A model generated the notes under the pieces. That model saw only the letters and a program-made list of their open reading frames with translations, searched no databases and was not told the DNA's origin. From a virus (taxonomy: Duplodnaviria > Heunggongvirae > Uroviricota > Caudoviricetes): 64,000 nucleotides of DNA. Positions 464 to 32,414 of the stretch are shown here, piece after piece (the stretch's first letter is position 1; each line of letters opens with the position of its first letter). The stretch lies in the IMG/VR virus record IMGVR_UViG_3300013426_000020. One strand, written 5' to 3'. A program made the translations under genes and the position numbers.

Positions 464-545
464 GGGAGTGCGGCAACGATGGTGAGTTGCACCAGACTGT
501 AAATCTGGTCTTTCGGGTTAGGGGGTTCGAATCCCTCCACTCCCA
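464..545 (+). tRNA. tRNA-Tyr (anticodon GTA), class II with long variable arm
   Basis: Cloverleaf by eye: acceptor gggagtg/cactccc, anticodon loop ctGTAaa, variable arm tctttcgggttagg, T-loop GGTTCGAATCC, discriminator A. Confidence 0.75.
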
Positions 546-640
546 CAAAAAAAAGTTCTTTGAAAATAAGAAACATAATCAGTCAATAACGTAATTACTC
601 TGCATAAGATCCTGGCAGTGAGAGAAGGGACGCTGATTTT

Positions 641-898
641 ATGACAACCATAAACCATTATTACATTGAATGTGATGATGTTTATCCTAGGAAATGGGTA
701 TCATTTATGAAACTCCAGATTGGGAAGGTCAAGTCAATGGAACGTGTCCGTCAGAATGATGTCTTTCGGGATTTCATCCTGCAACCTGAAGACAGGGGAG
801 TCCGTGAGGAGCGGTATGAGACAACACAACAGACGCATAAGAATGACGGAGATGTCTTTTATACCGTCAGTCCGGAAAATGGAAGCGACAGTCTGTAG
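641..898 (+). CDS. hypothetical protein (inside the tRNA cluster; uncertain)
   Basis: 85-aa ORF with no recognisable motifs; it lies between tRNA genes. Confidence 0.25.
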   Translation: MTTINHYYIECDDVYPRKWVSFMKLQIGKVKSMERVRQNDVFRDFILQPEDRGVREERYETTQQTHKNDGDVFYTVSPENGSDSL

Positions 899-1061
899 TT
901 CGTAAATCTGGTTGTCTTTTATATGACATCATTTTGCAGCCATAATAATCGGGACAATTGAAACCGAATCAGTGATGATGTCATCAGCAAGTTTTTCACC
1001 GGGGTTTCCTTGGTTCTTCAGGGTGTGAGTTTTGAAGAATAAAATAAATCTCGGTTTTTAT

Positions 1062-1133
1062 GCCTCTTTAGTATAAAGGTTATTATAACTGACTTGTAAT
1101 CAGTAGATATTGGTTCAATTCCGATAAGAGGCT
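1062..1133 (+). tRNA. tRNA-Thr (anticodon TGT)
   Basis: Acceptor gcctctt/aagaggc, anticodon stem actga/tcagt with loop ctTGTaa, T-loop GGTTCAATTCC. Confidence 0.7.
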
Positions 1134-1264
1134 CAAAAAAATGCAGACCCGTATAGTAAACTTGTAAGTTCTGGGTTTGGAGAAATCCATATAAGACCAT
1201 CTATAACACACTGGATAAAGTCGATTTTGGCATGCTCATAGGTTCAGTTGATGATGGAAACTGC

Positions 1265-1352
1265 ATTTTTTTTTGGAAGGTTGGGAGAGTTGGTTTATTC
1301 CAGAAGTCTTGAAAACTTCCGAACCTGTAAGGGTTCCGCAAGTTCGAATCTT
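1265..1352 (+). tRNA. tRNA-Ser (anticodon TGA), class II
   Basis: Acceptor ggaaggt/accttcc, discriminator G, anticodon loop ctTGAaa, long variable arm, T-loop GTTCGAATC. Confidence 0.75.
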
Positions 1353-1649
1353 GCACCTTCCGCAAAATAATCCCGGTGCAACAGGGATTGACAAGCAGGT
1401 TGCCAATAGGTAGGGGATAACCAATGATGTAATTTCGGTGTTTGATGCCTTTGAATGTCACCAAGTGTCTGTTTGAAGGAACAACATTGATGTAAATCCG
1501 GAGTGAATAATACGGCGGAAAAGTTCAGGTGGGGGTTTGTTGATGATGGTTTGTAGTACCTTGAACATTTGATTTTCCTCACAGAGAAATCCACTTCCCG
1601 GGCATTGTGTGGATGGAAAAATAGAGAACAGTTTCAAAAAACTACAATT

Positions 1650-1731
1650 ACCTGAGTGGGGGAATGGTAGACCCAGAACACTCAAAATGTTCCGCTCAAA
1701 AAGCATATGAGTTCGAATCTCATCTCAGGTA
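1650..1731 (+). tRNA. tRNA-Leu (anticodon CAA), class II
   Basis: Acceptor acctgag/ctcaggt, anticodon stem gaaca/tgttc with loop ctCAAaa, long variable arm, T-loop GTTCGAATC. Confidence 0.7.
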
Positions 1732-1746
1732 CAATTTATTATTGAT

Positions 1747-1929
1747 ATGAAAAAAGTTTGGTACAAAATTACAAATAAATTAGGATGGACAAAATATCAA
1801 TCTTTGGAAAGATATATTGAAGATCAGAAAGAATTTCATTATACACCTGTCAAGAAGATCATAAGAGTAACTGAAGAAGAGTTGTCAGAAGATATCATTG
1901 ATGATGTCAATAAACAAATTGGATGGTAA
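1747..1929 (+). CDS. hypothetical small protein (uncertain)
   Basis: 60-aa ORF sitting between tRNA-Leu and tRNA-Glu. Confidence 0.3.
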   Translation: MKKVWYKITNKLGWTKYQSLERYIEDQKEFHYTPVKKIIRVTEEELSEDIIDDVNKQIGW

Positions 1930-1969
1930 AATGAAAATACAATGATTTTTCAATTGATTTATCATATAT

Positions 1970-2043
1970 GCTCGGTTCATATAATGGTTTAGTATACAAG
2001 ATTTTCATTCTTGTCATGGTCGGTTCGACTCCGCCACCGAGTA
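1970..2043 (+). tRNA. tRNA-Glu (anticodon TTC)
   Basis: Acceptor gctcggt/accgagt (one G-U), anticodon stem caaga/tcttg with loop ttTTCat, T-loop GGTTCGACTCC. The D-arm is weak. Confidence 0.55.
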
Positions 2044-2087
2044 CTAATTTTTATTCTGTCAAATAAAAAAAAAATTATTACAAATTT

Positions 2088-2708
2088 ATGTCAAAATTTA
2101 TGAACACCGAAAAGAGAAACCAGATACTCAAGGAGTTGATGGTTTCTATAAGAAAGAACACACAGAAGTCAAGATGCATTGATGTTTTTGAAGATCTGTT
2201 GAACAACATTGATGACAAAAATGTAGTTGACATAGTCATAACAGATATGACTGTCTTTGTCAGTGAATTTTCAAGACTCTGCAAGGATATTGACAATATG
2301 AAGAACATTGACTTCATTTCAAGAATTCTCACAAAGGAATTCATCAAACCGGAAAAATGTTTCAGGGAATCTAAGGAAATTGCAAAACTTTATCTTGACT
2401 TGAGTGAGATTCTTCTTGGAAAATATACACATTTTCCTTATGTTCCTGAAAAACAGGTTATGTTGTCAAATTCAAACTGTCTCGGCAATCTTCAATACAA
2501 GGAAACATATACTCTTGATGACATTTTGAAGGTATCTAACTATTTCGGAGACTTAACTGACTTGTCAGTAGATGATTTCAAGAAAAAGTATGAACTTGCA
2601 AGGAAAGTTATACTTCTTTATAATTATCTTCCTGCTGTGGTGAAGGCATTCATCCAGACAAAACGAAGAAGTTTCAATCTGGATAGGAACTCGACAAAGT
2701 TCAAATAA
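2088..2708 (+). CDS. hypothetical protein
   Basis: 206-aa ORF; the first + strand gene after the tRNA array. Confidence 0.55.
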   Translation: MSKFMNTEKRNQILKELMVSIRKNTQKSRCIDVFEDLLNNIDDKNVVDIVITDMTVFVSEFSRLCKDIDNMKNIDFISRILTKEFIKPEKCFRESKEIAKLYLDLSEILLGKYTHFPYVPEKQVMLSNSNCLGNLQYKETYTLDDILKVSNYFGDLTDLSVDDFKKKYELARKVILLYNYLPAVVKAFIQTKRRSFNLDRNSTKFK

Positions 2709-2821
2709 ATTACATAAATAATTTGACATCACTCGGAGAGCGTATGTTCTGGTTGACCGCATTACCGTAAATGCGGTATTTTTATGTTTATTGAAGAAAT
2801 ATAATTTGTTATTTTTGAATT

Positions 2822-3871
2822 ATGAAAAAGTTTATTTTTATTTTATTGAGTCTGTTTATGGTACAGTCATGTTTTATAAATGACATAAGAACAGACTATG
2901 AAGGAAATCAGGTCATATCTTTTGAGCCTATTTCAAGAAAACAACACACAAGATCAACACCTTTATCAAAGTATGAATCTACAACAGGAGACTTTGCGGT
3001 CTTTTCATGGTATCAAAGGGGGACTGGAAGTTTTGATCCTGTCAATAATGATGTTGTACTTTATATGGACAATGTTGTATGTTCATATGATGAGATAAAT
3101 GGAAAAGGAACATGGATGCCTGTTACCACTTATTTTTGGCCAAAGAATGGAAAACTCACATTTTCTGCATATTATCCTGTTGGTGATGTGTTTGCTCCTA
3201 ATGTAAATGTGGATACAAAGACAGGATTGAAATTCAATGATTATAACATTGCAAATGCTGTTGATCAGAAGGATTTGATGTTCAGCTCAAGAACATATGA
3301 TAAATCTGCATCTATACATCCAGATGATTTTATTACAACTTATGATGGAGTTGATATATTGTTCAATCATGCTTTGTCAGCAATTTCTTTCACAGTGAAA
3401 TCAAGGGATGATTATAATGGTGTATTACTTTTGAAAAGAATTGAACTTATTGATGTGAAACACAAGGGTTCATTTGATGAGAATCTGACAGATGGATATG
3501 CAGTTAACAAGTCAGTCTGGTCTGTTGATGATGATAATGTTGATTATAAGATATATGAATCAACAGAAACATATGGAACAATAATTGATATGTCTGGTGT
3601 TGTATTCACAGATGCAAATACAGGTATAGTTCTTCCACAGGTTTTTGATGACAATGCAAAGATAAGAATTACATATTACATCAAATATGGTACAGACAAA
3701 TATCTTGAACAAGTCAATGATGTGAAGTTGAAGGATTTGAAGAAGGATGGACTTGTTTCACTTGATGCATGGGAAATGGGAAAATGGTACAAATACAATA
3801 TCACATTTGGTCTGGATCAGATTTATTTTGCACCTGCTATTGAAGAATGGATTGATGTAATTGTACGATAG
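2822..3871 (+). CDS. putative lipoprotein / secreted protein
   Basis: N-terminus MKKFIFILLSLFMVQSC is a signal peptide with a lipobox-like Cys; 349 aa. A TTTGTTATTTTT motif lies just upstream. Confidence 0.6.
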   Translation: MKKFIFILLSLFMVQSCFINDIRTDYEGNQVISFEPISRKQHTRSTPLSKYESTTGDFAVFSWYQRGTGSFDPVNNDVVLYMDNVVCSYDEINGKGTWMPVTTYFWPKNGKLTFSAYYPVGDVFAPNVNVDTKTGLKFNDYNIANAVDQKDLMFSSRTYDKSASIHPDDFITTYDGVDILFNHALSAISFTVKSRDDYNGVLLLKRIELIDVKHKGSFDENLTDGYAVNKSVWSVDDDNVDYKIYESTETYGTIIDMSGVVFTDANTGIVLPQVFDDNAKIRITYYIKYGTDKYLEQVNDVKLKDLKKDGLVSLDAWEMGKWYKYNITFGLDQIYFAPAIEEWIDVIVR

Positions 3872-3900
3872 TCATAAATACATAAAACAATTTATAAGTT

Positions 3901-4113
3901 ATGAACGAATTATCAAAGAATAATCTTATATGGTTCGGTAAGGTGCTTGCATTTGCACTGCCTGTATTCTTTGCAATAATCACATTTGCAGGAATTCTCA
4001 ATGGAATAGTTTCCGGTGGAATTGATTCCTTTTATGGATATGTGGCAGCTTTGAACATAGGTGTTGAAGGTTATTTGTTTTATAATCTTTATAGGAAGTT
4101 ATTCAAGAAATAA
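3901..4113 (+). CDS. small membrane protein
   Basis: 70 aa with two hydrophobic segments. Confidence 0.45.
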   Translation: MNELSKNNLIWFGKVLAFALPVFFAIITFAGILNGIVSGGIDSFYGYVAALNIGVEGYLFYNLYRKLFKK

Positions 4114-4121
4114 CTTAGTTT

Positions 4122-4211
4122 GGAAGATTACCCAAGTGGTGAAGGGGACGGTTTGCTAAACCGTTAGATCGGTCAATTACCGGTGCGGGGGTTCAAATCC
4201 CTCATCTTCCG
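4122..4211 (+). tRNA. tRNA-Ser (anticodon GCT), class II
   Basis: Acceptor ggaagat/atcttcc, discriminator G, anticodon stem acggt/accgt with loop ttGCTaa, long variable arm, T-loop GGTTCAAATCC. Confidence 0.75.
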
Positions 4212-4317
4212 CAAATTATACAATGTTTTTGGTTCAGGGAATGTATATGTCCCTTGAGTGTTCTTATGGACGCAAATGAATCGGAGACAGTTAAATACAA
4301 ATAAAATTTAATGAAGT

Positions 4318-5118
4318 ATGAGTTACAAAATTACAGAACAATTGGCGAAAATCGCCATCGCAAAAAGTCTTGTAAAGGAATACAGGACAAATGAATCAGG
4401 AAGAACAGTTTATTTGAACAATGGAACAGAATTCCAGATTTATCTCAAAAATCCTTATAGGAAACACATGGGTGTCAAGATTTATGTGAATGAACAGGAA
4501 ATAGGTGGTACACTTATCCTAAAACCTGGTCAGTCCTGTTGGCTTGAAAGGTTTATGAACAATGACAAGAAGTTTCTTTTTTCTACATATGAAGTTGAAA
4601 ACACACAGGAGATGAAAAACGCCATAAGTAATAATGGTAATATAAAGATAGAGTTCTTTATGGAAAAGGAAGTTGTTTATCATTATGAATGGAACAATAT
4701 CATAGACAACCCTATAAAACCATGGTCTCCTTATAACGATACAATAGTATGGTCATCCAGCAATCCTATAAACTGCAAGTTGACCAGTTTGAATATGGGT
4801 ACTTCAAATAGTTTGATACAAAGGGCTAATATTGTAGAAACATCTTGTTGCACAAAATATAATTCAAGTATACCATATCATAATGGTGTGATTGAGACTG
4901 GAAGAGTGGAGAGTGGATCAAAGTCAAATCAAAAGTTTGAAAACTGTGATATAGATCTTGAATATAATCCCTTCAAGGTGGAGGTCATCAAGATACTTCC
5001 TAATTCAAGAAAACAGGTTTCAGTCAATGAGACAAGACGGAAATATTGCGGGCAGTGTGGGAAGAAAGTAAGTCCAAAGGACAAATATTGTTCAAATTGT
5101 GGAACAAAACTGATATAA
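4318..5118 (+). CDS. hypothetical protein with C-terminal zinc ribbon
   Basis: C-terminus CGQCGKKVSPKDKYCSNCG is a CxxC-x9-CxxC pattern. Confidence 0.55.
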   Translation: MSYKITEQLAKIAIAKSLVKEYRTNESGRTVYLNNGTEFQIYLKNPYRKHMGVKIYVNEQEIGGTLILKPGQSCWLERFMNNDKKFLFSTYEVENTQEMKNAISNNGNIKIEFFMEKEVVYHYEWNNIIDNPIKPWSPYNDTIVWSSSNPINCKLTSLNMGTSNSLIQRANIVETSCCTKYNSSIPYHNGVIETGRVESGSKSNQKFENCDIDLEYNPFKVEVIKILPNSRKQVSVNETRRKYCGQCGKKVSPKDKYCSNCGTKLI

Positions 5119-9017: not shown

Positions 9018-10148
9018 ATGCAGATAATAGATAATGTGCAGTTGGATTTCAGCGATGTTTTGATAAGACCGAGAAGGTCAACCTTGGCATCAAGAAAGGA
9101 TGTTGATATTACAAGGGAATATAAGTTCAAATGGTGTCCCAAGGTCATCAGGGGGACAGGAATTATGCAGGCGAATATGGGAACCATAGGAAATTTTGAT
9201 GTAAGTGAGAGAATGCTTGAAAATGGATTGTTTGCCTGTCTTCACAAGCACCATGATATAGACAGTCTTATAGACTTTTATAAGAAACTTTTGACTTATG
9301 ATGATGACAGATGGATGAGATGTCTGTTGAGCATAGGTTTGAAGGACAATGGAGTGGAGAAACTTGAAAGAATATACAGGGAACTCAGTATTCAGGTGGG
9401 TATCAAGCTGGATGTTCCAAACGGATATATTCCGCAGGTAAAGGAGATGGTGGTCAAGTTGAGAGACCAGTTTCCGGAGATGCTGATTATGGTGGGAAAT
9501 GTAGTCACAGGAGACATTTCAGAAGATTTGATACTTTCCGGAGCAGACATAGTCGCAGAGGGGATCGGATCGGGTGGTCAATGTATTACTCGCAAGCAGA
9601 CCGGTGTAGGAAGACCACAGTTTTCTACAATAGTTGAAACAGCTGATGCAGTTCATCAGGTAGGTGGACTCATCTGTTCAGACGGAGGGATAACATGTGC
9701 AGGTGATGTGGGGAAGGCATTTGGCGCAGGAGCGGATTTCATTATGATAGGGGGACTGTTTGCAGGAACAGATGAAGCTGACGGGGATATCATAGAGAAA
9801 TACTACAATACTGGAGAACTGAACAGGACAGACAATGGAGACAGTTATATATATTCTCCTGTTATAGAGACAAAAAAATATAAGCTCTTTTATGGTATGA
9901 GTTCCACGCTTGCGCAGGAAAAATTTGGAAACGGAAAACCTAAATACAGGGCAAGTGAGGGGAGGGTGACACAGGTTCCTTATGTAGGATCGGTAAATGA
10001 TGTGGTTGAGGAACTTCTTGGTGGACTCAGATCAACAATGACATATATCGGTGCAAGAAGACTCAAGGACATACCGAAACAGTGCATCTTTTACAGGGTG
10101 AACAACCAGTTGAACAGAATGTTTGAAAACAATACAATAGGAAAATAA
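9018..10148 (+). CDS. guaC: GMP reductase (GuaC, IMPDH/GMPR family)
   Basis: Collinear similarity to E. coli GuaC: MQIIDNVQLDFSDVLIRPRRS, GIGSGGQCITRKQTGVGRPQFS, SDGGITCAGDVGKAFGAGADF, GMSS...YRASEG. Confidence 0.85.
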   Translation: MQIIDNVQLDFSDVLIRPRRSTLASRKDVDITREYKFKWCPKVIRGTGIMQANMGTIGNFDVSERMLENGLFACLHKHHDIDSLIDFYKKLLTYDDDRWMRCLLSIGLKDNGVEKLERIYRELSIQVGIKLDVPNGYIPQVKEMVVKLRDQFPEMLIMVGNVVTGDISEDLILSGADIVAEGIGSGGQCITRKQTGVGRPQFSTIVETADAVHQVGGLICSDGGITCAGDVGKAFGAGADFIMIGGLFAGTDEADGDIIEKYYNTGELNRTDNGDSYIYSPVIETKKYKLFYGMSSTLAQEKFGNGKPKYRASEGRVTQVPYVGSVNDVVEELLGGLRSTMTYIGARRLKDIPKQCIFYRVNNQLNRMFENNTIGK

Positions 10149-10152
10149 AAAA

Positions 10153-10178
10153 ATGGAGATGATAAATCATCTCCATTT
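10153..10178. terminator. bidirectional terminator between convergent genes
   Basis: Hairpin atggagatgat/atcatctccat flanked by A and T runs. Confidence 0.55.
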
Positions 10179-10180
10179 TG

Positions 10181-11080
10181 TTAAATTTCAATTTCATATG
10201 TAGAATCTGAAAAATCAATCACATGTGTCTTGTCGAATTCAGGTTTGTATGTACAATCCATCAATGGTTTGTCATCGGTGTCATAAATGACAATCCCTGT
10301 CTCGATAAGTTGTGGATATGCATCCTCATATGTCATAGACTCTGGTTCTGAAGGTTGATAGTAGTCTCCATTGAATCCGGCATAATATTTTGACTTGTGA
10401 TATTCAAATTCAAATGTAGGATAAAGTTCTATTTTATAATCATTGAATTTGAATTCAATAGAAGATTCATATGTGTTATTTATATCTTCTACATTTCTTT
10501 CATCTATAAAAATTTCAATACATCTGTCAAGTTCATCACAACATTCATCAATAAAGTCATCAAGAATACCCCGTTCATCAAAAAAGTTCTTGATATCATT
10601 AAAGTCTTCAATGTCCTTTTTGTGATTCTTTACGAATTCTTTTCTATGATTGAACTTCTTTTCGAATTTTGTAGGTTCAACTGTTTTTCTTTTTTTCCTG
10701 TCATTTCTTATATCATATAGATGATTGGACACATCTTTTTTATTGACTCTGCACACAAGATACTTTCCTGATTTCAAACCTATTATATAATCTTCAGTCA
10801 TATTGATTATTTCCCATGGTTTGGTGTCATCAATTTCAAAATCATCTCCACGCCGTTTATATCTAGGTTGTGCATCTATGGTTTCTATACCTGAATTGTT
10901 CAACATATCTTCCGCATCGTCCTTGCTGTCAGCCATACCTATGATATCATTTTCAGAAATTTGATTAAGTATGGATTTATCAATATCTGCATCAAATTCA
11001 CCGTCTTTGAATAACTTTGATATTGTTGGACTTTTGAAACTTTCATTTAAAGATATGAATTCATCAAATTTGAGTATCAT
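10181..11080 (-). CDS. acidic hypothetical protein (one of few minus-strand genes)
   Basis: 299-aa ORF, D/E-rich, convergent with guaC. Confidence 0.55.
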   Translation of the reverse strand: MILKFDEFISLNESFKSPTISKLFKDGEFDADIDKSILNQISENDIIGMADSKDDAEDMLNNSGIETIDAQPRYKRRGDDFEIDDTKPWEIINMTEDYIIGLKSGKYLVCRVNKKDVSNHLYDIRNDRKKRKTVEPTKFEKKFNHRKEFVKNHKKDIEDFNDIKNFFDERGILDDFIDECCDELDRCIEIFIDERNVEDINNTYESSIEFKFNDYKIELYPTFEFEYHKSKYYAGFNGDYYQPSEPESMTYEDAYPQLIETGIVIYDTDDKPLMDCTYKPEFDKTHVIDFSDSTYEIEI

Positions 11081-12610: not shown

Positions 12611-13189
12611 ATGTCAAGACCGAACAAATGTATAAAGGATGAGACAGGGAAGGAATACTGGATTTCAAGATCTGTTGTGGTGATTCCTGTGGTGTTCAAA
12701 TATGATATTCAAAATGATGACATATATGCCCTTGTGGAGAGAAGGGGTCCTGCGGTGTCACATCCCGGAGAATGGTGCTGTCCGTGTGGGTATATAGACT
12801 GGGATGAGAGTCTTACGGAAGCATGTGTAAGGGAAGTACGGGAAGAAACAGGTCTTGTGCTTGACGAAGAAAGAATAAATCTGTTTGAAGTGAACAGCGA
12901 CAAGTACACAAAAAACCAGACTGTGGATTTGTGGTACGAGTGCTGGATACCCGAAGAGTCCGATTTTCATATGGACAAGATCGAGACGAAGACCGAGATT
13001 CTTGATGTGAGATGGCTGAAGGTGGCGCATATGGGAAATAATGATTCCGGAAAGAATATTCTGACCATATATAAGAAATCGATATATGACGGATACGGCA
13101 TATGGGCGTTCAAGTCTCATCATACACATGTCATAGATATGTTGAAGTCAAGGTTTTCAATGTGTGATATAAAGGAAGTTGATGAGTAA
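12611..13189 (+). CDS. Nudix hydrolase
   Basis: Nudix box GYIDWDESLTEACVREVREETGL. Confidence 0.7.
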   Translation: MSRPNKCIKDETGKEYWISRSVVVIPVVFKYDIQNDDIYALVERRGPAVSHPGEWCCPCGYIDWDESLTEACVREVREETGLVLDEERINLFEVNSDKYTKNQTVDLWYECWIPEESDFHMDKIETKTEILDVRWLKVAHMGNNDSGKNILTIYKKSIYDGYGIWAFKSHHTHVIDMLKSRFSMCDIKEVDE

Positions 13190-24572: not shown

Positions 24573-24797
24573 ATGTTGCAGGTGATTGCGGAAATTGTGG
24601 CATGGATCGCAACCGTGTTCAGGGGAGCGGGAATGCTGATGAAGAATGCGGATATGGTGAAATATCTGGTCAGTGCCGGAAATCTGGGATGGCTGATCAA
24701 CGGGGCACTGACAGGAAATGTCCCGCTGATGGTCAGCAATGGATTCTGTCTGCTGGTGATGATGTATGAAATAATAATAAAAAAGATAAGGAAATGA
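24573..24797 (+). CDS. small membrane protein
   Basis: 74 aa with two transmembrane-like segments. Confidence 0.4.
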   Translation: MLQVIAEIVAWIATVFRGAGMLMKNADMVKYLVSAGNLGWLINGALTGNVPLMVSNGFCLLVMMYEIIIKKIRK

Positions 24798-25147
24798 AGG
24801 AACAGATGGGATACAAATGCGACTTCTGCGGAAAGATGTCATCGAGCAGAAGTGCAATGATGAGACATGAACAGGCATGCAGGAAGAATCCTGAAAATCT
24901 GTCAATGTGCGCGAGATGCAAGTTTCTCAGGAGGGATGAGGACTTCAGTTATAATTATCATGGTGAGCCTGTGAAGATGACAAGGATGATCTGCACATCA
25001 ACGGGGGACAGTCTTTATCACAACAGAGTGTTGAGGTTCGTCAACAAGGACATCACATATGAAATAGTGAAGCATTCCGACAGAAAGATGCCGAACATCA
25101 ATGAAGGATGCAGATATTTCAAACAGTATAATCCGGATGAGAAATGA
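24794..25147 (+). CDS. zinc-finger-like hypothetical protein
   Basis: YKCDFCGK...HEQACRKN is a C2H2-like pattern. Confidence 0.45.
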   Translation: MKEQMGYKCDFCGKMSSSRSAMMRHEQACRKNPENLSMCARCKFLRRDEDFSYNYHGEPVKMTRMICTSTGDSLYHNRVLRFVNKDITYEIVKHSDRKMPNINEGCRYFKQYNPDEK

Positions 25148-25341
25148 GCAGGACCATAAAACATCAGGACATATATGATGTCCTGCATGGAAGAAAAGTT
25201 TCTTACAGAAAGAGAATGAAAATATATAAATGGTTTGACAGAGTGAACTTTTGGGATCCCGACTTCAAGATAAACTACAGAAAGAGAAAGGACTGGAGAC
25301 ATGGCGGAATGTCCCGGATAAAGGCAAGGAGATACAAATGA
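25144..25341 (+). CDS. hypothetical basic small protein
   Basis: 65 aa, K/R-rich. Confidence 0.4.
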   Translation: MSRTIKHQDIYDVLHGRKVSYRKRMKIYKWFDRVNFWDPDFKINYRKRKDWRHGGMSRIKARRYK

Positions 25342-26063
25342 TTACATCAAGGGAGCACAGAATAGAGATATTGAATGAGAACATCAATATCTGCAATGAC
25401 AAGAATTTGAAACCAGAATTCCGGGGTGGACTGGTGTTTGGACCTACACATGTAGCATGTGCGGAAAATTTCATCAGGGAGGATGGTGATGAATATGACA
25501 GGTCGAGAGTCATATTCGAGCAAACCGACACGATAACATCCGCACTGAAATACAGAAGAAAAACAGGTGTTGACTTTCTTGTGTTCGCATCGTCCAGACA
25601 CTATGGCGGCGGGGTGTGGAACGGATCAAAGGCACAGGAGGAGGACATTTTTCTCTGCACCGATCTCTGTATGAATCATAAGGATGCACAGGAGAAATTC
25701 TATCCGTTGAACGGATGTATGACAATGGACTGTCATATCATCAGGGACTCGAATTTTGAAGTTCTGAAATATCCTGTCAATGCAAGGGCTTTCTTCTGTC
25801 CGGCACCAAATCTCAACTTGACAAATTCTGGTCATGACTTCTGGACAAGGATGTGTACATTTTCTGATACGACTTTTGACTATGCGAAGGGGGAATGTCT
25901 GGTGATAGGCGCATGGGGATGCGGAGTGTTCAAAAACAATCCTGAAGAAGTTGCGGATATGTTCAGGAAATCAATGTCCATGTTTCTGGAAGACTACAGG
26001 AATGTGGTTGTGTCCATACCTGATGAAAATATGTTAAACATATTCAAGAAAAAATTATCATGA
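25338..26063 (+). CDS. bacterial-type poly(ADP-ribose) glycohydrolase-like macrodomain (DUF2263/TIGR02452)
   Basis: PARG signature GGG-X8-QEE (HYGGGVWNGSKAQEEDIF) plus GAWGCGVFKNNPEEVA. Internal ATG of ORF 25251..26063. Confidence 0.65.
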   Translation: MITSREHRIEILNENINICNDKNLKPEFRGGLVFGPTHVACAENFIREDGDEYDRSRVIFEQTDTITSALKYRRKTGVDFLVFASSRHYGGGVWNGSKAQEEDIFLCTDLCMNHKDAQEKFYPLNGCMTMDCHIIRDSNFEVLKYPVNARAFFCPAPNLNLTNSGHDFWTRMCTFSDTTFDYAKGECLVIGAWGCGVFKNNPEEVADMFRKSMSMFLEDYRNVVVSIPDENMLNIFKKKLS

Positions 26064-26509
26064 AACACAGTTCAATAATAACAGACATAAAGATATGGCA
26101 TGAATCATATGATGATTACTGTCCGTTCTATCTTCACACAAGAAAGGGTGATGAATATATGACATGGGAATGGGAATTTCTTGGAATTTTCAGGATGGAG
26201 AAGAAGAAACATATTGCAGATCAGGATATGTTCGCATGCAAATGGTGGTCGGAAGGAAGATTGTATACAAACAATGAGTTAGAATTTGAGAATGATAAGT
26301 ATGAATACAGGAATGGAAAGTTCATCAGTCTGGCACATATGAGATTCTTGACCGGAGACGGAAAAACACATGTCTTATGGTTTCACAATGACAAGGATTG
26401 TTCAAGGGCATATGAATGGTTGAACGGAATATTGAAATCATATGGACTCAAGGACATAAATGACATCAAAAAATTCCTGAAGGATGAATTCGGTGCCATA
26501 GAATTATAA
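26060..26509 (+). CDS. hypothetical protein
   Basis: 149-aa ORF. Confidence 0.5.
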   Translation: MKHSSIITDIKIWHESYDDYCPFYLHTRKGDEYMTWEWEFLGIFRMEKKKHIADQDMFACKWWSEGRLYTNNELEFENDKYEYRNGKFISLAHMRFLTGDGKTHVLWFHNDKDCSRAYEWLNGILKSYGLKDINDIKKFLKDEFGAIEL

Positions 26510-26670
26510 AAGTTGTTATCTTTGTATATGATGAGACACATTTATTTTATTATAAACAACTTCACAGGATCAAGATATGGATGTTGGAGTTCAATAGAAG
26601 AGGCAGAATGTTACAGAAACATGCTTGATGACTGGATGAACTGGGATATAGGAATGGAAGAAAATTATTT

Positions 26671-28002
26671 TTGAAAATGAATAAACTGACACTTGAGAAC
26701 ATAAGGATAGAAGACCACAAGATTTATGACACTGACGGAAACTTTGTGGGTGAGATACTGTATGAGTATATTCGTGGTTCACGTTTATACAATATAAATC
26801 TTGAAGGATTCGATTCTGACGGCAATCCGCTTTCGGATGAAGATCATGGCGGAGTCTATATAATGACCGACAACAGGAAACTTGGTCTGGGACTTGACTA
26901 CCAGAACGAGATAAAGGATGAGAAGAATGACAACTGTCTATGGGAACTGGGCAGGTTTATGGAGCTTGCACTGACTTCCAACCCGACCGTTCTTGAAGCT
27001 TTGTTCGTTCCGGATGACAAGGTGATATATGAACATCCTGTGATGAAGGAGTTGAGGAGTCACAGGAATGAGTTTGTCTCGAAGGCGTGTTTCAAGCCTT
27101 ACTATATGTACTCTAAGAGTCAAATTTCCAAATCCAGAGGACAAAACAAGAAGATTCACTGGGACATCGAACAGATGAAGAGAAAGACTCCATTGGACTT
27201 CTGTTATACTTTCAAAGGTCAGGGATCCCAACTCATATCCGACTGGCTTGATGAGAATGGACTTGAACAGAGAAACTGTGGACTGGTGAATGTCCCGAAC
27301 ATGCCTGATATGTATGGAGTATATTATGACTGGGGTCAACATTTCAGGTTGAATGATATTGATATGATGAAATTCAGGGACAGTGACGAATATGAGAAGA
27401 TGAGACATTTCATTTCTTGTTTTTATTTTGACGGATATGCAGATGACTACAGTCTGGAGATATGGTACGAGAAGAATTCTGTCCCGAAGGGAGGATATAC
27501 AGGTATCATATCTCAAAATGAGGACTCCAACACCATAAGATACTGTTCTATTCCTGATAAGAATGAAAGACCGGTATGTTATATGTCATACAATGCCAAT
27601 GGATACGCGACACATTGCAGAAAATACAAAGAATATCTTGATTGGAAGAACCACAGGAACAAGGCGAGATACGAGTCGAATCTTGAAGGAGAGAAGTCCG
27701 GAAATCCGGATCTCATGTATGACTCCAAGAACATGATGCACTGTTTCAGGATGATTTCCATGGCGAAGGAGATTGCGGAAGGAAAGGGAATAATACTCGA
27801 CAGGACAGGAATCGACAAAGATTTCCTTATGGATGTGAGAATGAGAAGGTACGGTTATTCCGAACTGATGAAGAGACTTGAAAAGATGTCAAGAGAAATG
27901 GATGAGTCCATATGGAACTCAGTAATCAAAGAAAACATTGATCCGGAATTTGTGAACAATCTTCTGCTTGATATAAGAAAACAATGGAGGAAAAATATAT
28001 GA
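26671..28002 (+). CDS. putative pol-beta-superfamily nucleotidyltransferase-fold protein
   Basis: N-terminal RGSRLYNINLEGFDSD matches hG[GS]-x9-13-DxD. 443 aa. Confidence 0.35.
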   Translation: MKMNKLTLENIRIEDHKIYDTDGNFVGEILYEYIRGSRLYNINLEGFDSDGNPLSDEDHGGVYIMTDNRKLGLGLDYQNEIKDEKNDNCLWELGRFMELALTSNPTVLEALFVPDDKVIYEHPVMKELRSHRNEFVSKACFKPYYMYSKSQISKSRGQNKKIHWDIEQMKRKTPLDFCYTFKGQGSQLISDWLDENGLEQRNCGLVNVPNMPDMYGVYYDWGQHFRLNDIDMMKFRDSDEYEKMRHFISCFYFDGYADDYSLEIWYEKNSVPKGGYTGIISQNEDSNTIRYCSIPDKNERPVCYMSYNANGYATHCRKYKEYLDWKNHRNKARYESNLEGEKSGNPDLMYDSKNMMHCFRMISMAKEIAEGKGIILDRTGIDKDFLMDVRMRRYGYSELMKRLEKMSREMDESIWNSVIKENIDPEFVNNLLLDIRKQWRKNI

Positions 28003-28181
28003 TTTGCAAATTCAACGACGGATACGGTGCGGTATTATGCTCAAGATGTGGAAAGATAGTGTATTTGGGATCGCAAATCCCAAGTGCCATACAAAAACTC
28101 ATAATGAACAGCAAGGACACATCAGAACTTCCTGATATTTTTTGTCCTGAATGTTCGGATGAACTTGACCATATTTTATAA
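27999..28181 (+). CDS. small zinc-ribbon protein
   Basis: CSRCGK...CPECSDE. Confidence 0.4.
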   Translation: MICKFNDGYGAVLCSRCGKIVYLGSQIPSAIQKLIMNSKDTSELPDIFCPECSDELDHIL

Positions 28182-28212
28182 TTTGTGAATTCTCCAGATT
28201 TCTTCAAGAAAA

Positions 28213-28244
28213 TTTGGAGAAATCATTTTTATATGCTATTTTTG
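28213..28244 (+). promoter_or_regulatory. class A promoter (variant -7 TATTTTTG)
   Basis: TTTG at 28213, 20 nt, TATTTTTG, then leader tatcaacaaataaaac. Confidence 0.45.
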
Positions 28245-28697: not shown

Positions 28698-29126
28698 ATG
28701 GGAATTATTATTGTAACGACATTGTTCTTCATAGGGATAATGTTCTTTGACTTCTGGTATTGCAGGAAGATGGAGATAATGAAATACATAAGCATCGGCA
28801 TAACCCTTGCCATATTGAAGACATCATTGATGTTTCTTCTTCTTATACCGAAACATGGAGTCATAGACCAGAAGGACTATCTGTCCGCATTGGGTGCCAA
28901 GACTTTCATAGAAACCGAACAGATACTCACACAGGATGACCTTGATATGTTCAGACTGTCCATAAGGGAGATAAACGAATATCACAGTCAGAGGAAGGAC
29001 ATAGAGAACAGACATGAAAGATTCTGGGATGGACTGTTCTATAGTGAGAAGTCTCTTGAGAAGTATCCGGACATATCAGTGGACAATATGAGAATACACA
29101 AGGACATAGACAGCATATGCGAGTAG
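28698..29126 (+). CDS. membrane protein
   Basis: 142 aa with two N-terminal transmembrane segments. Confidence 0.5.
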   Translation: MGIIIVTTLFFIGIMFFDFWYCRKMEIMKYISIGITLAILKTSLMFLLLIPKHGVIDQKDYLSALGAKTFIETEQILTQDDLDMFRLSIREINEYHSQRKDIENRHERFWDGLFYSEKSLEKYPDISVDNMRIHKDIDSICE

Positions 29127-29629
29127 TGTTCCTTGACATAGACGGTGTTCTCAACTACACTAAATGGTATATTGATGACAGGAATCCCGGAAATCTTTAT
29201 GGACAGGAAGGCGACATAGACCCATTGTGCATAGAAAGGGTGATGAAAATCTGCAATCTCACAAATGCGAAAGTTGTCGTGTCGTCGGACTGGAGAATAG
29301 ACTGGGAAGGAACAAAAAAGAGACTTTCAAGAATGGGTCTGGATGAAAACTATGTGATTGACAAGACTCCGGAATTCATCTGGAACAATCTGAATGATCC
29401 GGAATATCTTGAGGATGACTATGATACTGTATATGAATATACCAGAGGTGCAGAGATAGACGAATGGCTGAAACATAATGAAGTTGAAAATTATGTGATC
29501 CTCGACGACAGGACAGACTTCACAAAGGAACAGTATGGGCATTTCATCCATATTGATCCTTATGAGGGACTGACTGACAAGGATGTTGAACGGGCAATAA
29601 AGATATTGAATTATGACAATTGCGGTTGA
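29117..29629 (+). CDS. HAD-superfamily phosphatase
   Basis: Motif I VFLDIDGVLN. Confidence 0.5.
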   Translation: MRVVFLDIDGVLNYTKWYIDDRNPGNLYGQEGDIDPLCIERVMKICNLTNAKVVVSSDWRIDWEGTKKRLSRMGLDENYVIDKTPEFIWNNLNDPEYLEDDYDTVYEYTRGAEIDEWLKHNEVENYVILDDRTDFTKEQYGHFIHIDPYEGLTDKDVERAIKILNYDNCG

Positions 29630-31604: not shown

Positions 31605-32414
31605 ATGAAAGGATTTTTGAAGATTTTTATGGTCATTATGACCGCAATGATAATTTCTTCCTGTTATTCCGTGACTCCGGGAGCGGGGGAAGAAGGAATT
31701 TTGATAGACAAACCGTTGTTGTTCGGTCATGGTGGAGTAAGGGAGAAGACCGTGGAACCCGGCAGGAAATGGGTATGGTTCACCACCGAATATGTAATCA
31801 TCAAAACGGTTCCGGTGAGATATGACATAGAATTTGATGACATAATGTCGAATGACAACACCCCATTGGACTATGCGACATACATAACCTTACAGATAGA
31901 CAAGGGAAAGGCACCTATGCTTCTACAGAACTATGGAGAAGACTGGTTCTCCAATAATGTTGAGGCAAAATACAGGAACTTTGTGAGAGAGGAAGTGTCA
32001 AAGTATGATCCATTTGACCTGATGTCCAACAGGGAGGTGATAACTGATATCGACAGACAGGTGAAGAAAAAAATTGACACATATTTCGGTGAACTGAACT
32101 CAAAGTCTGAGTTTCCCGTGACATGTACAGAAATCATCACCGGCAGGGCAAAACCGAATCAGCTCCAGCTCGACGAGATGAACAAGACTGCGGCAGCTAT
32201 TCAGGCGAAGCAGACTCAAGAAAGGACAGTGGAGATGGAGCAGGCCAGAGAGAAGGCGGAACGACAAAGGGCACTTGCAGACAAGGCATATATGAAAGAG
32301 ATGAACCTGTCACAGGATCAGTTCATCATGCTGAAGATTGTAGAGAAATCAAATCCGAACATCGATGTGGTAATGGGTGGAAGTGCAAGCTCGATGTGGA
32401 ACATAAGAAGATAA
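31605..32414 (+). CDS. lipoprotein, possible SPFH/band-7-like domain
   Basis: Signal plus Cys (MKGFLKIFMVIMTAMIISSC); C-terminal coiled-coil ERTVEMEQAREKAERQRALADKAY. Confidence 0.35.
   Translation: MKGFLKIFMVIMTAMIISSCYSVTPGAGEEGILIDKPLLFGHGGVREKTVEPGRKWVWFTTEYVIIKTVPVRYDIEFDDIMSNDNTPLDYATYITLQIDKGKAPMLLQNYGEDWFSNNVEAKYRNFVREEVSKYDPFDLMSNREVITDIDRQVKKKIDTYFGELNSKSEFPVTCTEIITGRAKPNQLQLDEMNKTAAAIQAKQTQERTVEMEQAREKAERQRALADKAYMKEMNLSQDQFIMLKIVEKSNPNIDVVMGGSASSMWNIRR

Follow-up and report, generated by a model that had tools for sequence, protein, structure and literature searches.

What would a phage do with an enzyme that removes ADP-ribose, and from which molecule would it remove it? The question is raised by an open reading frame in a 64,000-nucleotide stretch of viral DNA (hereafter the window, meaning the whole stretch that was analyzed), for which the initial annotation had proposed a bacterial-type PARG macrodomain. 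The reading frame has the boundaries first given to it, and its main features are as follows.

Plus strand, 25338-26063: coding sequence of a microbial-type PARG, 241 aa, with ATG at 25338 and TGA at 26061-26063.
Plus strand, 25605-25643: catalytic loop GGG-X7-QEE, residues 90-102 (Q100/E101/E102), GGGVWNGSKAQEE.
Plus strand, 25908-25931: diphosphate-binding loop GAWGCGVF, residues 191-198.

The original assignment had been made from two short motifs, and it is borne out by HMM searches in which the protein exceeds both curated cut-offs of the microbial-type PARG family (Pfam PF10021/DUF2263, NCBIfam TIGR02452). A Pfam scan of the 241-aa protein gave 46.4 bits for PF10021 PARG_cat_microb (cut-off, 23.5), the only other match being a weak one to PF05028, and TIGR02452 scored 74.2 bits (cut-off, 50), with residues 56-237 aligned to profile positions 56-265/266. 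Among sequences of solved structures, the PARGs of D. radiodurans and T. curvata were recovered at E values of 1.3e-11 and 5.5e-9, respectively. The similarity greatly exceeds what chance would give and extends past the two motifs. Because PHROGs contained no significant family (best E 0.023), that database provided no annotation for the protein.

The catalytic signature had been recorded as GGG-X8-QEE; both its ends are present, but the spacer between G90-G92 and the QEE has seven residues (VWNGSKA) rather than eight, which falls within the published range of GGG-X6-8-QEE. This loop aligns with the pgggflggaqaqee stretch of the D. radiodurans PARG, and G90, G91, G96, A99, Q100, E101 and E102 are invariant across 56 homologues, as are G191, A192, W193, G194, G196, V197 and F198 of the second glycine-rich loop. 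The latter, GAWGCGVF, is present as originally noted and reads the same in D. radiodurans. The published diphosphate-loop motif is a G-[A/V]-[aromatic] hydrophobic patch with Phe or Tyr (PMC7050489), whose place is taken by W193, as it is in the active D. radiodurans enzyme.

An AF2 model (pLDDT 94.5, pTM 0.91) adopts a macrodomain fold with an N-terminal helical extension (helices 5-21 and 36-49 precede the core) and a C-terminal helix at 230-240, nearest to the solved microbial PARGs. In a Foldseek search, the top 13 PDB matches were all PARGs of T. curvata or D. radiodurans (best, 3sih/3sig and 5zd* entries), and generic macrodomains came after. The microbial-type prototype from T. curvata (PDB 3SIG/3SIH/3SIJ) was the best match (E 5e-13, TM 0.69) and has the same macrodomain, helical extension and GGG-X6-8-QEE catalytic loop, but it is only 22% identical; it is a strict exo-glycohydrolase by virtue of its C-terminal 'ribose cap'. 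The D. radiodurans enzyme DRB0099 (PDB 5ZDA-5ZDG; TM ~0.70), for which endo-activity has been reported, belongs to the same Pfam and TIGR families and has identical QEE and GAWGCGVF motifs, but is ~24% identical and is cellular rather than viral. HMM scores, conservation and the high-confidence model together make it very probable that the reading frame encodes a full-length poly(ADP-ribose) glycohydrolase of the bacterial type, a PARG/DUF2263 macrodomain whose catalytic signature is intact. As such it is predicted to be catalytically competent, and it would bind a terminal ADP-ribose, after which E102, by homology the second Glu of GGG-X7-QEE, would protonate the leaving group to release free ADP-ribose.

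Because there are no structural genes in the 64-kb window, we infer that its source is a phage from other properties: it comes from an IMG/VR viral contig of which there is a syntenic copy that is 94% identical, Lak megaphages and one crAss-like phage provide its best phage matches, and the window has a tRNA array and a dense, co-directional layout of mostly unannotated reading frames. These phage matches exist at the protein level only, as a megablast search of 12 kb against known phages returned nothing. Recoding of stop codons has been reported for Lak-type megaphages. Here, stop-codon statistics and the TGA stop of the PARG, which agrees with where the family profile ends, show code 11 to be adequate, and an alternative genetic code was rejected. 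The window carries six tRNAs, SmpB, a Band-7 protein and a TROVE-like protein, and the phage therefore possesses an RNA- and translation-related gene repertoire. The genes of the window that lie apart from the PARG and bear on its interpretation are the following.

12611-13189: Nudix protein, 12 kb from the PARG and homologous to a Nudix protein of the viral locus L021.
29117-29629: HAD_SAK_2 protein, the only kinase/phosphatase-type candidate near the PARG.
31605-32414: Band-7 protein, 5.5 kb from the PARG and outside its gene string.
59371-60951: TROVE-like DUF2828 protein, 33 kb from the PARG and outside its gene string.

No ART, PARP, Tpt1/KptA, RNA ligase or polynucleotide kinase was detected in the window; for ligases, the precomputed Pfam hits of its genes included no such family, and phmmer searches with two Deinococcus ligases found nothing. 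Family-specific naming of the Nudix proteins yielded generic, sub-threshold matches only.

The genes nearest to the PARG form a co-directional string (24573-28181) in which some neighbors overlap and no gap between the others exceeds 19 nt.

Plus strand, 25144-25341: upstream 65-aa reading frame with no family match, whose stop overlaps the PARG start (ATGA, 25338-25341).
Plus strand, 26060-26509: downstream 149-aa reading frame, whose start overlaps the PARG stop (ATGA, 26060-26063).
Plus strand, 26528-26674: conserved 48-aa reading frame between the PARG and RlaP, homologous to 10753-10899 of the related locus L006.
Plus strand, 26677-28002: RlaP-family (PF10127) Pol-beta nucleotidyltransferase.
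Plus strand, 27999-28181: small Cys-rich reading frame, 60 aa as called (65 aa from 27984), which overlaps the end of RlaP and is the last gene of the string.
Plus strand, 28190-28221: terminator-like hairpin (consensus match) with a 12-bp stem and a T-rich tail, which closes the string.

The RlaP assignment (PF10127, 56.3 bits; phrog_388 nucleotidyltransferase in PHROGs, E 1.7e-34) is accompanied by 64% identity to the RlaP of L006, and its best phage matches are in Lak megaphages (43.7%). The 48-aa reading frame and its L006 homologue have an AEC-RNM-DDW motif in common, whereas the 149-aa reading frame is absent from L006 and matches nothing in Pfam, PHROGs, NCBIfam or PADLOC; the Cys-rich product has sub-threshold zinc-ribbon matches only. 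RlaP begins 613 nt downstream of the PARG with no terminator-like site in between, and the hairpin at 28190-28221 is the sole such site on the plus strand between 23616 and 29500. Judging from the spacing and from this consensus hairpin, the PARG is most likely co-transcribed with RlaP. Enzymes of the RlaP type extend damaged 3' ends of RNA by one or two NMPs (PMC12776372), and RlaP may be the functional partner of the PARG. The initial annotation had missed this neighbor.

The two genes also occur together elsewhere. At L006 and L094, where the PARG is 49% identical, the order PARG, 48-aa reading frame, RlaP is kept, with Thg1 and HD genes nearby, and in lineages whose PARGs are ~30% identical the linkage takes other arrangements: RlaP and the start of the PARG share 4 nt (L022), the order is CCA-adding enzyme, PARG and, at 822 nt, RlaP (L032/L034), or an AAA_33+HD kinase/phosphatase is followed by RlaP, DHH and the PARG (L076). 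Ligases lie beside the PARG in L065 (a PF09414 RNA ligase directly upstream), L076 and L096, and PNK-like genes are near it in L025, L065, L076 and L096. Among bacteria, RlaP lies within 10 kb of the PARG in 10 of 80 loci, and the locus of Deinococcus yunweiensis, a relative of the DRB0099 cluster that includes RlaP as the phage string does, encodes RlaP, a PF09414 RNA ligase, PARG, a Pnkp-kinase-like protein, an Rnl5 RNA ligase and an RlaP-like protein. The phage string likewise resembles RNA-repair clusters, which combine a ligase, a nucleotidyltransferase, an end-healing kinase or phosphatase and a scaffold or cofactor module of the Band-7/SPFH or TROVE kind, in having an RlaP-type nucleotidyltransferase; it differs from them in that no RNA ligase, whether RtcB or ATP-dependent, was detected in the window.

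This linkage is nevertheless patchy. Of 40 viral lineages, only 6 have RlaP within 10 kb of the PARG, and the linkage is variable inside lineages; in Lak megaphages and LR756502 the two genes do not adjoin, over 200 kb lying between them. In a census that compared the Pfam families within 2 kb of the PARG with those beyond 6.5 kb in 40 lineages, RNA-repair families showed no clear enrichment near it (near vs. far: RNA_ligase, 2 vs. 2; Band_7, 2 vs. 2; NUDIX, 2 vs. 2; TROVE, 2 vs. 0), and de novo clustering of neighbors at 80 viral loci produced no family present in more than 10 loci, those loci being closely related contigs. Given the lack of clear enrichment in the census and the patchy linkage, the proximity of the PARG and RlaP may partly reflect a tendency of auxiliary genes to cluster in jumbo phages generally. 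For this reason we claim recurrent adjacency to RlaP and not a general operonic rule.

The reading that we favor, with a probability of roughly 0.45, is that the phage PARG acts as an RNA-directed ADP-ribose eraser within a translation and RNA-protection repertoire; the RNA substrate, the role and co-transcription are what we infer. RNA is a more likely target than DNA because the PARG lies in the same gene string as an RNA-repair enzyme, and it is the link to RlaP, taken together with the published activity of PARGs on ADP-ribosylated RNA, that points to RNA rather than to DNA or protein. Two PARGs of the bacterial type, SCO0909 and DRB0099, reverse the 2'-OH ADP-ribosylation of RNA by RhsP2 as well as ADP-ribosylated 5'-phosphate ends, and both protect E. 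coli from RhsP2 (PMC11833690). SCO0909, from S. coelicolor, acts as an 'immunity' enzyme and is the functional model proposed here, although its gene stands alone on the chromosome of an actinomycete, and DRB0099 sits in an operon of an RNA/DNA ligase, PARG and HD/PNK (PMC11833690), whereas the phage PARG has no adjoining ligase or kinase. By analogy, the phage enzyme would strip 2'-OH-linked marks from structured RNAs such as tRNA, or remove 5'-phosphate ADP-ribose caps, and in this way might keep the translation RNAs of phage and host usable, or make damaged ends repairable, under attack by an ADP-ribosyltransferase toxin or defense. More tentatively, and with the odds against it, the PARG and RlaP could constitute a phage module in which ADP-ribose is first removed from RNA attacked by an RNA-targeting ART and the trimmed 3' end is then rebuilt. 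Our search of the literature found no assays of a phage PARG.

A rather unlikely alternative is that the PARG is an eraser of protein or poly(ADP-ribose) marks, which would trim PAR or reverse the protein modifications made by phage or host ARTs or PARPs. Hydrolysis of PAR is the activity on which the family was founded, as described for the T. curvata and D. radiodurans enzymes (PMC8120803, PMC7050489), and among the genes of jumbo phages ARTs are numerous and PARPs occasional (PMC7824862). Such an enzyme might adjust the modifications by which the phage itself takes over its host, or undo a host toxin. In the window, which is only part of the genome, there is no detectable ART or PARP, and none of the conserved PARG neighbors that we found is an ART. 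The initial annotation had suggested that the enzyme could reverse modifications like those of Alt and Mod; the marks made by ARTs of this type are arginine-linked, a linkage that PARG-class enzymes are not known to cleave and that is no described PARG substrate, so that this suggestion fits poorly.

Hydrolysis of soluble ADP-ribose-derived host immune signals or toxic metabolites containing a ribose-ribose or ribose-ester bond (e.g., 1''-2' gcADPR, O-acetyl-ADP-ribose or ADP-ribose-1''-phosphate, with free ADP-ribose passing to Nudix enzymes and NAD salvage) is likewise unlikely, and slightly more so. Several neighborhoods are suggestive in this respect: at L021 the PARG is flanked by a Nudix hydrolase, to which the Nudix protein of our window is homologous, and by a YAcAr SLOG-domain protein, and L034 has an NMNAT-Nudix gene at a distance of 5 kb. 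A signal or metabolite role has been proposed for Macro and NADAR domains in a survey of jumbo phages (PMC7824862), and the 1''-2' glycosidic bond of gcADPR would be chemically equivalent to the linkage in PAR. Against this, our literature search found no PARG-type activity on gcADPR and no paper containing both terms, Nudix genes were as frequent far from the PARG as near it in the census, and that of the window is itself 12 kb distant. In addition, the processing of Appr1p and OAADPr is a function of MacroD/Poa1-type macrodomains.

The counter-defense role first suggested for this gene was the removal of ADP-ribose from phage DNA bases modified by host DarT toxins. The general idea of a phage eraser that counters defense is reasonable, since phage-encoded ADP-ribose hydrolases that neutralize DarTG are known, namely AdfN, a NADAR (PMC11825919), and AdfM, a DarG2-like macrodomain from jumbo phages (PMC13309987), and the PARG is, by sequence and fold, an intact ADP-ribose hydrolase. 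The proposed target, however, is weakly supported, and we regard it as quite improbable. The marks made by DarT are base-linked, and base-linked DNA ADP-ribose is the substrate of AdfN and AdfM. Thymidine-linked ADP-ribose is removed by macrodomains of the DarG/TARG1 type, and in a fly panel said to include Parg, Targ1 and Targ3 alone were active (PMC12879935); guanosine-linked ADP-ribose is removed by NADARs alone, the macrodomain hydrolases tested being inactive (PMC11833690). The phage protein differs from both kinds of enzyme. AdfN, which with DarG1 belongs to the NADAR erasers, has a NADAR fold, and the Pfam scan of the PARG revealed no NADAR domain (PF08719); AdfM belongs to another class of macrodomains, with catalysis by an Asn/Lys pair (N22/K80 in T. 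aquaticus DarG), whereas the PARG has the QEE loop and its predicted mode of catalysis. No DarG structure is among the top 50 PDB fold matches of the model, no PADLOC family, DarG models included, matches the protein at E <= 0.1, and its conserved neighbors are RNA enzymes, not DNA enzymes. PADLOC also returned no match for the Band-7 protein, a sub-threshold reverse-transcriptase match for RlaP, and a weak match of the Nudix protein to the candidate system PDC-S07 (E 5.6e-07); no result places the PARG in a known defense system.

The phage PARG is a further member of a known family that jumbo phages and giant viruses commonly carry, with a strong bias toward very large viral genomes. Its relatives are encoded on 356 IMG/VR stretches, contigs of at least 200 kb supply 30 of the best 80 IMG/VR loci, and none of the 19 complete phage records with a match is smaller than 497 kb. 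Bacillus phage G gp114, the Lak megaphage and LR756502 proteins and the 'microbial-type PARG' proteins of giant viruses have the same family and fold but are only 27-33% identical. The PARG itself falls in a clade of ~20 proteins (44-95% identity) that is confined to phage-like contigs and in which every catalytic residue is invariant. Cellular homologues are at most ~38% identical across a partial local segment, and ~27-32% identical across long matches (Streptomyces, ~25-31%), and the acquisition of the gene is therefore old. Comparison with L014, between two phage variants, yields a dN/dS of 0.14, and the PARG is under purifying selection. That the gene is a passenger, recently obtained from bacteria and merely tolerated, is consistent with the patchy distribution of the family and its diverse neighborhoods across viral lineages, but is very improbable given this constraint, the invariant catalytic residues, the distance to cellular homologues, the overlap of both its ends with adjoining reading frames and the number of viral relatives.

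Bacterial-type PARGs are widespread, yet most bacteria have no PARPs, and the natural substrates of these enzymes are largely unknown, erasure from RNA having been demonstrated only in 2025. An intact phage-only clade, a gene string with RlaP and a bias toward large viruses offer a concrete and testable setting for the idea that some of them act on RNA, and suggest that phages may be under selective pressure from RNA ADP-ribosylation. If the PARG and RlaP do form such a module, it would provide the first case of a phage gene whose product erases ADP-ribose from RNA, and ADP-ribosylation of RNA at 2'-OH groups or phosphate ends would be in wide use as a weapon against jumbo phages and megaphages. 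If confirmed, PARGs would become a third class of enzymes, after NADARs and DarG-like macrodomains, in the ADP-ribose counter-defense of phages, and one that protects RNA rather than DNA.

Every testable defining feature of microbial-type poly(ADP-ribose) glycohydrolases (PARGs) is found in the protein encoded at 25338-26063, which therefore belongs to that family. The initial annotation had located the ORF exactly, and its DUF2263/PARG assignment was borne out when profile searches were run: The protein scored 46.4 bits with PF10021 (PARG_cat_microb, formerly DUF2263; gathering cut-off 23.5) and 74.2 bits with NCBIfam TIGR02452 (cut-off 50). Both motifs that it had named are present, but the spacer of the catalytic signature is X7, not X8, and seven residues fall inside the published GGG-X6-8-QEE range (PMC8120803; PMC7050489).

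Features of the window: tRNA array, PARG motifs and the gene string around PARG
464-4212, +, six-tRNA array (Tyr-GTA, Thr-TGT, Ser-TGA, Leu-CAA, Glu-TTC, Ser-GCT)
String gene 1, +, 74-aa ORF, membrane-like
String gene 2, +, 117-aa ORF, sub-threshold zinc-finger matches
String gene 3, +, 65-aa ORF directly before PARG
String gene 4, 25338-26063, +, PARG (ATG at 25338, TGA at 26061-26063, 241 codons)
PARG residues 90-102, catalytic loop GGGVWNGSKAQEE, GGG-X7-QEE
PARG residues 191-198, diphosphate loop GAWGCGVF
String gene 5, 26060-26509, +, 149-aa ORF directly after PARG
String gene 6, 26528-26674, +, 48-aa ORF between PARG and RlaP
String gene 7, 26677-28002, +, RlaP (PF10127) nucleotidyltransferase, 441 aa
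String gene 8, +, small Cys-rich ORF, 60 aa as called, 65 aa read from 27984
28190-28221, +, terminator-like hairpin directly after the string, the region's only one on the + strand

Similarity extends beyond the motifs. A likeness confined to the short signature, which the initial annotation had named as grounds for doubt, was clearly not what we found: the TIGR02452 alignment spans PARG residues 56-237 and profile positions 56-265 (of 266), and the structural matches are PARG-type. The closest solved structures by sequence, the Deinococcus radiodurans (E 1.3e-11) and Thermomonospora curvata (E 5.5e-9) PARGs, align with the window protein at both loops. Across 56 aligned homologues, G90, G91, G96, A99, Q100, E101, E102, Y122, A156, G191, A192, W193, G194, G196, V197 and F198 are invariant, and the AlphaFold2 model built from this alignment (mean pLDDT 94.5, pTM 0.91) retrieved T. 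curvata or D. radiodurans PARG as all of its top 13 Foldseek matches in the PDB (TM ~0.7), followed by generic macrodomains (YmdB, coronavirus Nsp3, PARP14). A PADLOC search with the protein, DarG models included, returned no match. A DarG-like or NADAR eraser was rejected as its identity.

As far as sequence and fold tell, the window PARG works like DRB0099 of D. radiodurans and SCO0909 of Streptomyces coelicolor. In this family, the macrodomain cleft holds ADP-ribose, with the distal ribose strained by the diphosphate loop; protonation of the leaving group by the catalytic QEE glutamate gives an oxocarbenium intermediate and then, with water, free ADP-ribose (PMC7050489). In published work, bacterial-type PARGs act on PAR termini, on the RNA mark made by the toxin RhsP2, and on ADP-ribose caps at 5'-phosphate RNA or DNA ends (PMC11833690). 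The RhsP2 mark has a C1''-O2' linkage chemically identical to that of PAR; among the hydrolases assayed, PARGs alone reversed this 2'-OH RNA mark, and SCO0909 and DRB0099 shielded E. coli from RhsP2 (PMC11833690).

Because structural genes are absent from the 64-kb window, we infer its phage status rather than observe it, and that inference is well supported. Nearly all of its ORFs are short, tightly packed, on the + strand and mostly without a Pfam match, a six-tRNA array is present, and an IMG/VR viral contig has a syntenic copy of the locus. The window RlaP is closest to those of the Prevotella Lak megaphages (43.7% identity), the helicase is closest to a crAss-like phage helicase, and relatives of the DUF2828 protein occur on 711 phage records; megablast against 50,697 phage records found no close nucleotide relative. 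Genetic code 11 is adequate for the window, and four of the six tRNA genes pass the Rfam gathering score. The + strand is TGA-rich, and GC skew is strongly positive and near constant (cumulative skew climbs monotonically to 6.8), flipping only in the final 2 kb, where genes move to the - strand.

A GMP reductase gene (9018-10148; NF003470, 406.9 bits, cut-off 397) lies near genes for an EcoRI-like endonuclease (weak match), a D12-class adenine methylase (PF02086) and a PIF1-type helicase. The Nudix hydrolase at 12611-13189 is homologous (E 1.5e-17) to that at 2456-2983 of another PARG-bearing viral locus, L021, where the Nudix gene is 14 nt upstream of PARG and a YAcAr SLOG-domain protein gene follows, a group that looks like an ADP-ribose-metabolism cluster. 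Family-level searches gave the Nudix proteins only generic, sub-threshold matches. Downstream of PARG, at a distance of 5.5 kb, is a Band-7/SPFH gene (31605-32414); modules of this kind are proposed scaffolds for RNA repair, paired with a tRNA-like RNA. An SmpB homologue (58873-59325; NF003843, 183 bits) is encoded directly upstream of a TROVE/Ro60-like DUF2828+DUF7788 protein (59371-60951), and a scan of the window with ARAGORN yielded no tmRNA gene.

The nearest relatives of the window PARG form a clade of ~20 metagenomic proteins (44-95% identity), followed by a gap to ~35%. Among 185,579 species representatives, no cellular homologue exceeded ~38% identity (a partial local segment), and matches spanning most of PARG were ~27-32% identical. 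Only 19 complete phage records have a PARG match, every one at least 497 kb: Lak phages, the huge uncultured phages LR756502 and LR756511, and Bacillus phage G (gp114). Relatives are encoded on 356 IMG/VR stretches; among the best 80 of these loci, 30 are on contigs measuring 200 kb or more and two belong to giant-virus MAGs. In BFVD the fold, already labelled 'microbial-type PARG', occurs in Tupanvirus, Orpheovirus, Marseillevirus, Pandoravirus and Bodo saltans virus. Given these records in phage databases, IMG/VR and BFVD, viral microbial-type PARG is not new as a database fact; we found no study of any phage PARG in the searchable literature, and a jumbo-phage comparative survey mentions Macro and NADAR domains, never PARG (PMC7824862). 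What is new is modest: a PARG clade that to date is known only from phage-like contigs and lacks close relatives in cells, the family's strong preference for very large viral genomes, and a recurrent physical link of PARG to RlaP that, as far as we found, had not been pointed out before. On one contig (L095), PARG is 35% identical to the window's, and that PARG occurs on contigs as long as 444 kb; close to it are aminoacyl-tRNA synthetase genes (3533-4849 and 10100-11004), one of which, tRNA-synt_2, is in two pieces (165 aa + 45 aa). Either stop-codon recoding or a pseudogene may account for the split.

Across 24573-28181, neighbouring + strand genes either overlap or are separated by no more than 19 nt; PARG shares an ATGA at its start with the stop of the 65-aa ORF and another at its stop with the start of the 149-aa ORF. 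The latter has no match in Pfam, PHROGs, NCBIfam or PADLOC and, since it is absent from the related viral loci L006 and L094, looks like a lineage-specific insertion. Both loci keep the order PARG, 48-aa ORF, RlaP (PARG 49%, RlaP 64% identical to the window's), with Thg1 and HD genes near. The 48-aa ORF has no family match, but its homologue at L006 10753-10899 has the AEC-RNM-DDW motif in common with it, even though the PARGs are only 49% identical. This arrangement reflects shared ancestry and is not independent evidence.

Independent evidence for the link is supplied by lineages whose PARG is only ~30% identical. In L022, RlaP is directly upstream of PARG with a 4-nt overlap, the reverse of the window's order; L032 and L034 encode, in order, CCA-adding enzyme, 112-aa ORF, PARG, 176-aa ORF and RlaP, and an NMNAT-Nudix gene follows 5 kb further on; and L076 has genes for an AAA_33+HD kinase/phosphatase, RlaP and a DHH phosphoesterase upstream of PARG, and one for an Rnl5-like ligase 8 kb downstream. 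Also among these lineages, a PF09414 RNA ligase gene is immediately upstream of PARG (L065) and a homologue of the window's Band-7 gene is 1.7 kb downstream (L028). In cellular genomes, our RlaP profile had a match no more than 10 kb from PARG at 10 of 80 loci (Deinococcus, Kitasatospora, Streptomyces), where random placement in multi-megabase genomes predicts well under one. The Deinococcus yunweiensis chromosome (L096 8351-14430) encodes RlaP, PF09414 RNA ligase, PARG, a Pnkp-kinase-like protein, Rnl5-type RNA ligase and an RlaP-like protein, thereby extending by two RlaP genes the ligase-PARG-HD/PNK operon published for D. radiodurans (PMC11833690).

The linkage is recurrent, not universal. 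RlaP is within 10 kb of PARG in only six of 40 viral lineages (delimited at 60% PARG identity), some members of the six are without it, and hundreds of kilobases separate the two genes in Lak phages and LR756502. In the 64-kb window, no RNA ligase, polynucleotide kinase, Tpt1 or ADP-ribosyltransferase was detected. A Pfam census that set 144 ORFs lying no farther than 2 kb from PARG against 142 ORFs more than 6.5 kb away showed no clear enrichment near PARG (RNA ligase 2 vs 2, Band-7 2 vs 2, Nudix 2 vs 2, TROVE 2 vs 0), and part of the PARG-RlaP signal may therefore mirror a general tendency of large phages to group their auxiliary RNA and nucleotide genes.

We put at roughly 45% the probability that the window PARG is an RNA-directed ADP-ribose eraser acting together with RlaP, a reading placed first, and the others in the order given here, by the published specificities and the absent PADLOC match. 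An eraser of PAR or protein marks, PAR termini being accepted by its relatives, is rather improbable; it would be paired with an unseen ART or PARP. A hydrolase that acts on soluble ADP-ribose derivatives and feeds Nudix and NAD salvage is suggested by the gene contexts at L021 and L034 and is likewise improbable. The anti-DarT role proposed in the initial annotation is disfavoured and very unlikely: In published panels guanosine-ADPr is removed only by NADARs (PMC11833690) and thymidine-ADPr by DarG/TARG1-type macrodomains (PMC12879935), and the phage erasers known to counter DarT are AdfN, a NADAR (PMC11825919), and AdfM, a DarG2-like macrodomain that uses Asn/Lys catalysis (PMC13309987). 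Least probable is a functionless passenger gene: PARG has a dN/dS of 0.14 relative to a 94% identical copy on an IMG/VR contig (L014) and is thus under purifying selection.

RlaP, the 'RNA ligase-associating Pol-beta' enzyme, extends the 3' ends of damaged RNA by one or two nucleotides, and over-trimmed tRNA requires it to regain aminoacylation (preprint PMC12776372). An RNA-directed PARG and RlaP might then form a two-step module, in which ADP-ribose would be erased first and the RNA rebuilt afterwards, countering RNA-targeting ADP-ribosyltransferases. This fuller proposal is doubtful, but such an 'erase then rebuild' module would, if true, be of clear interest.
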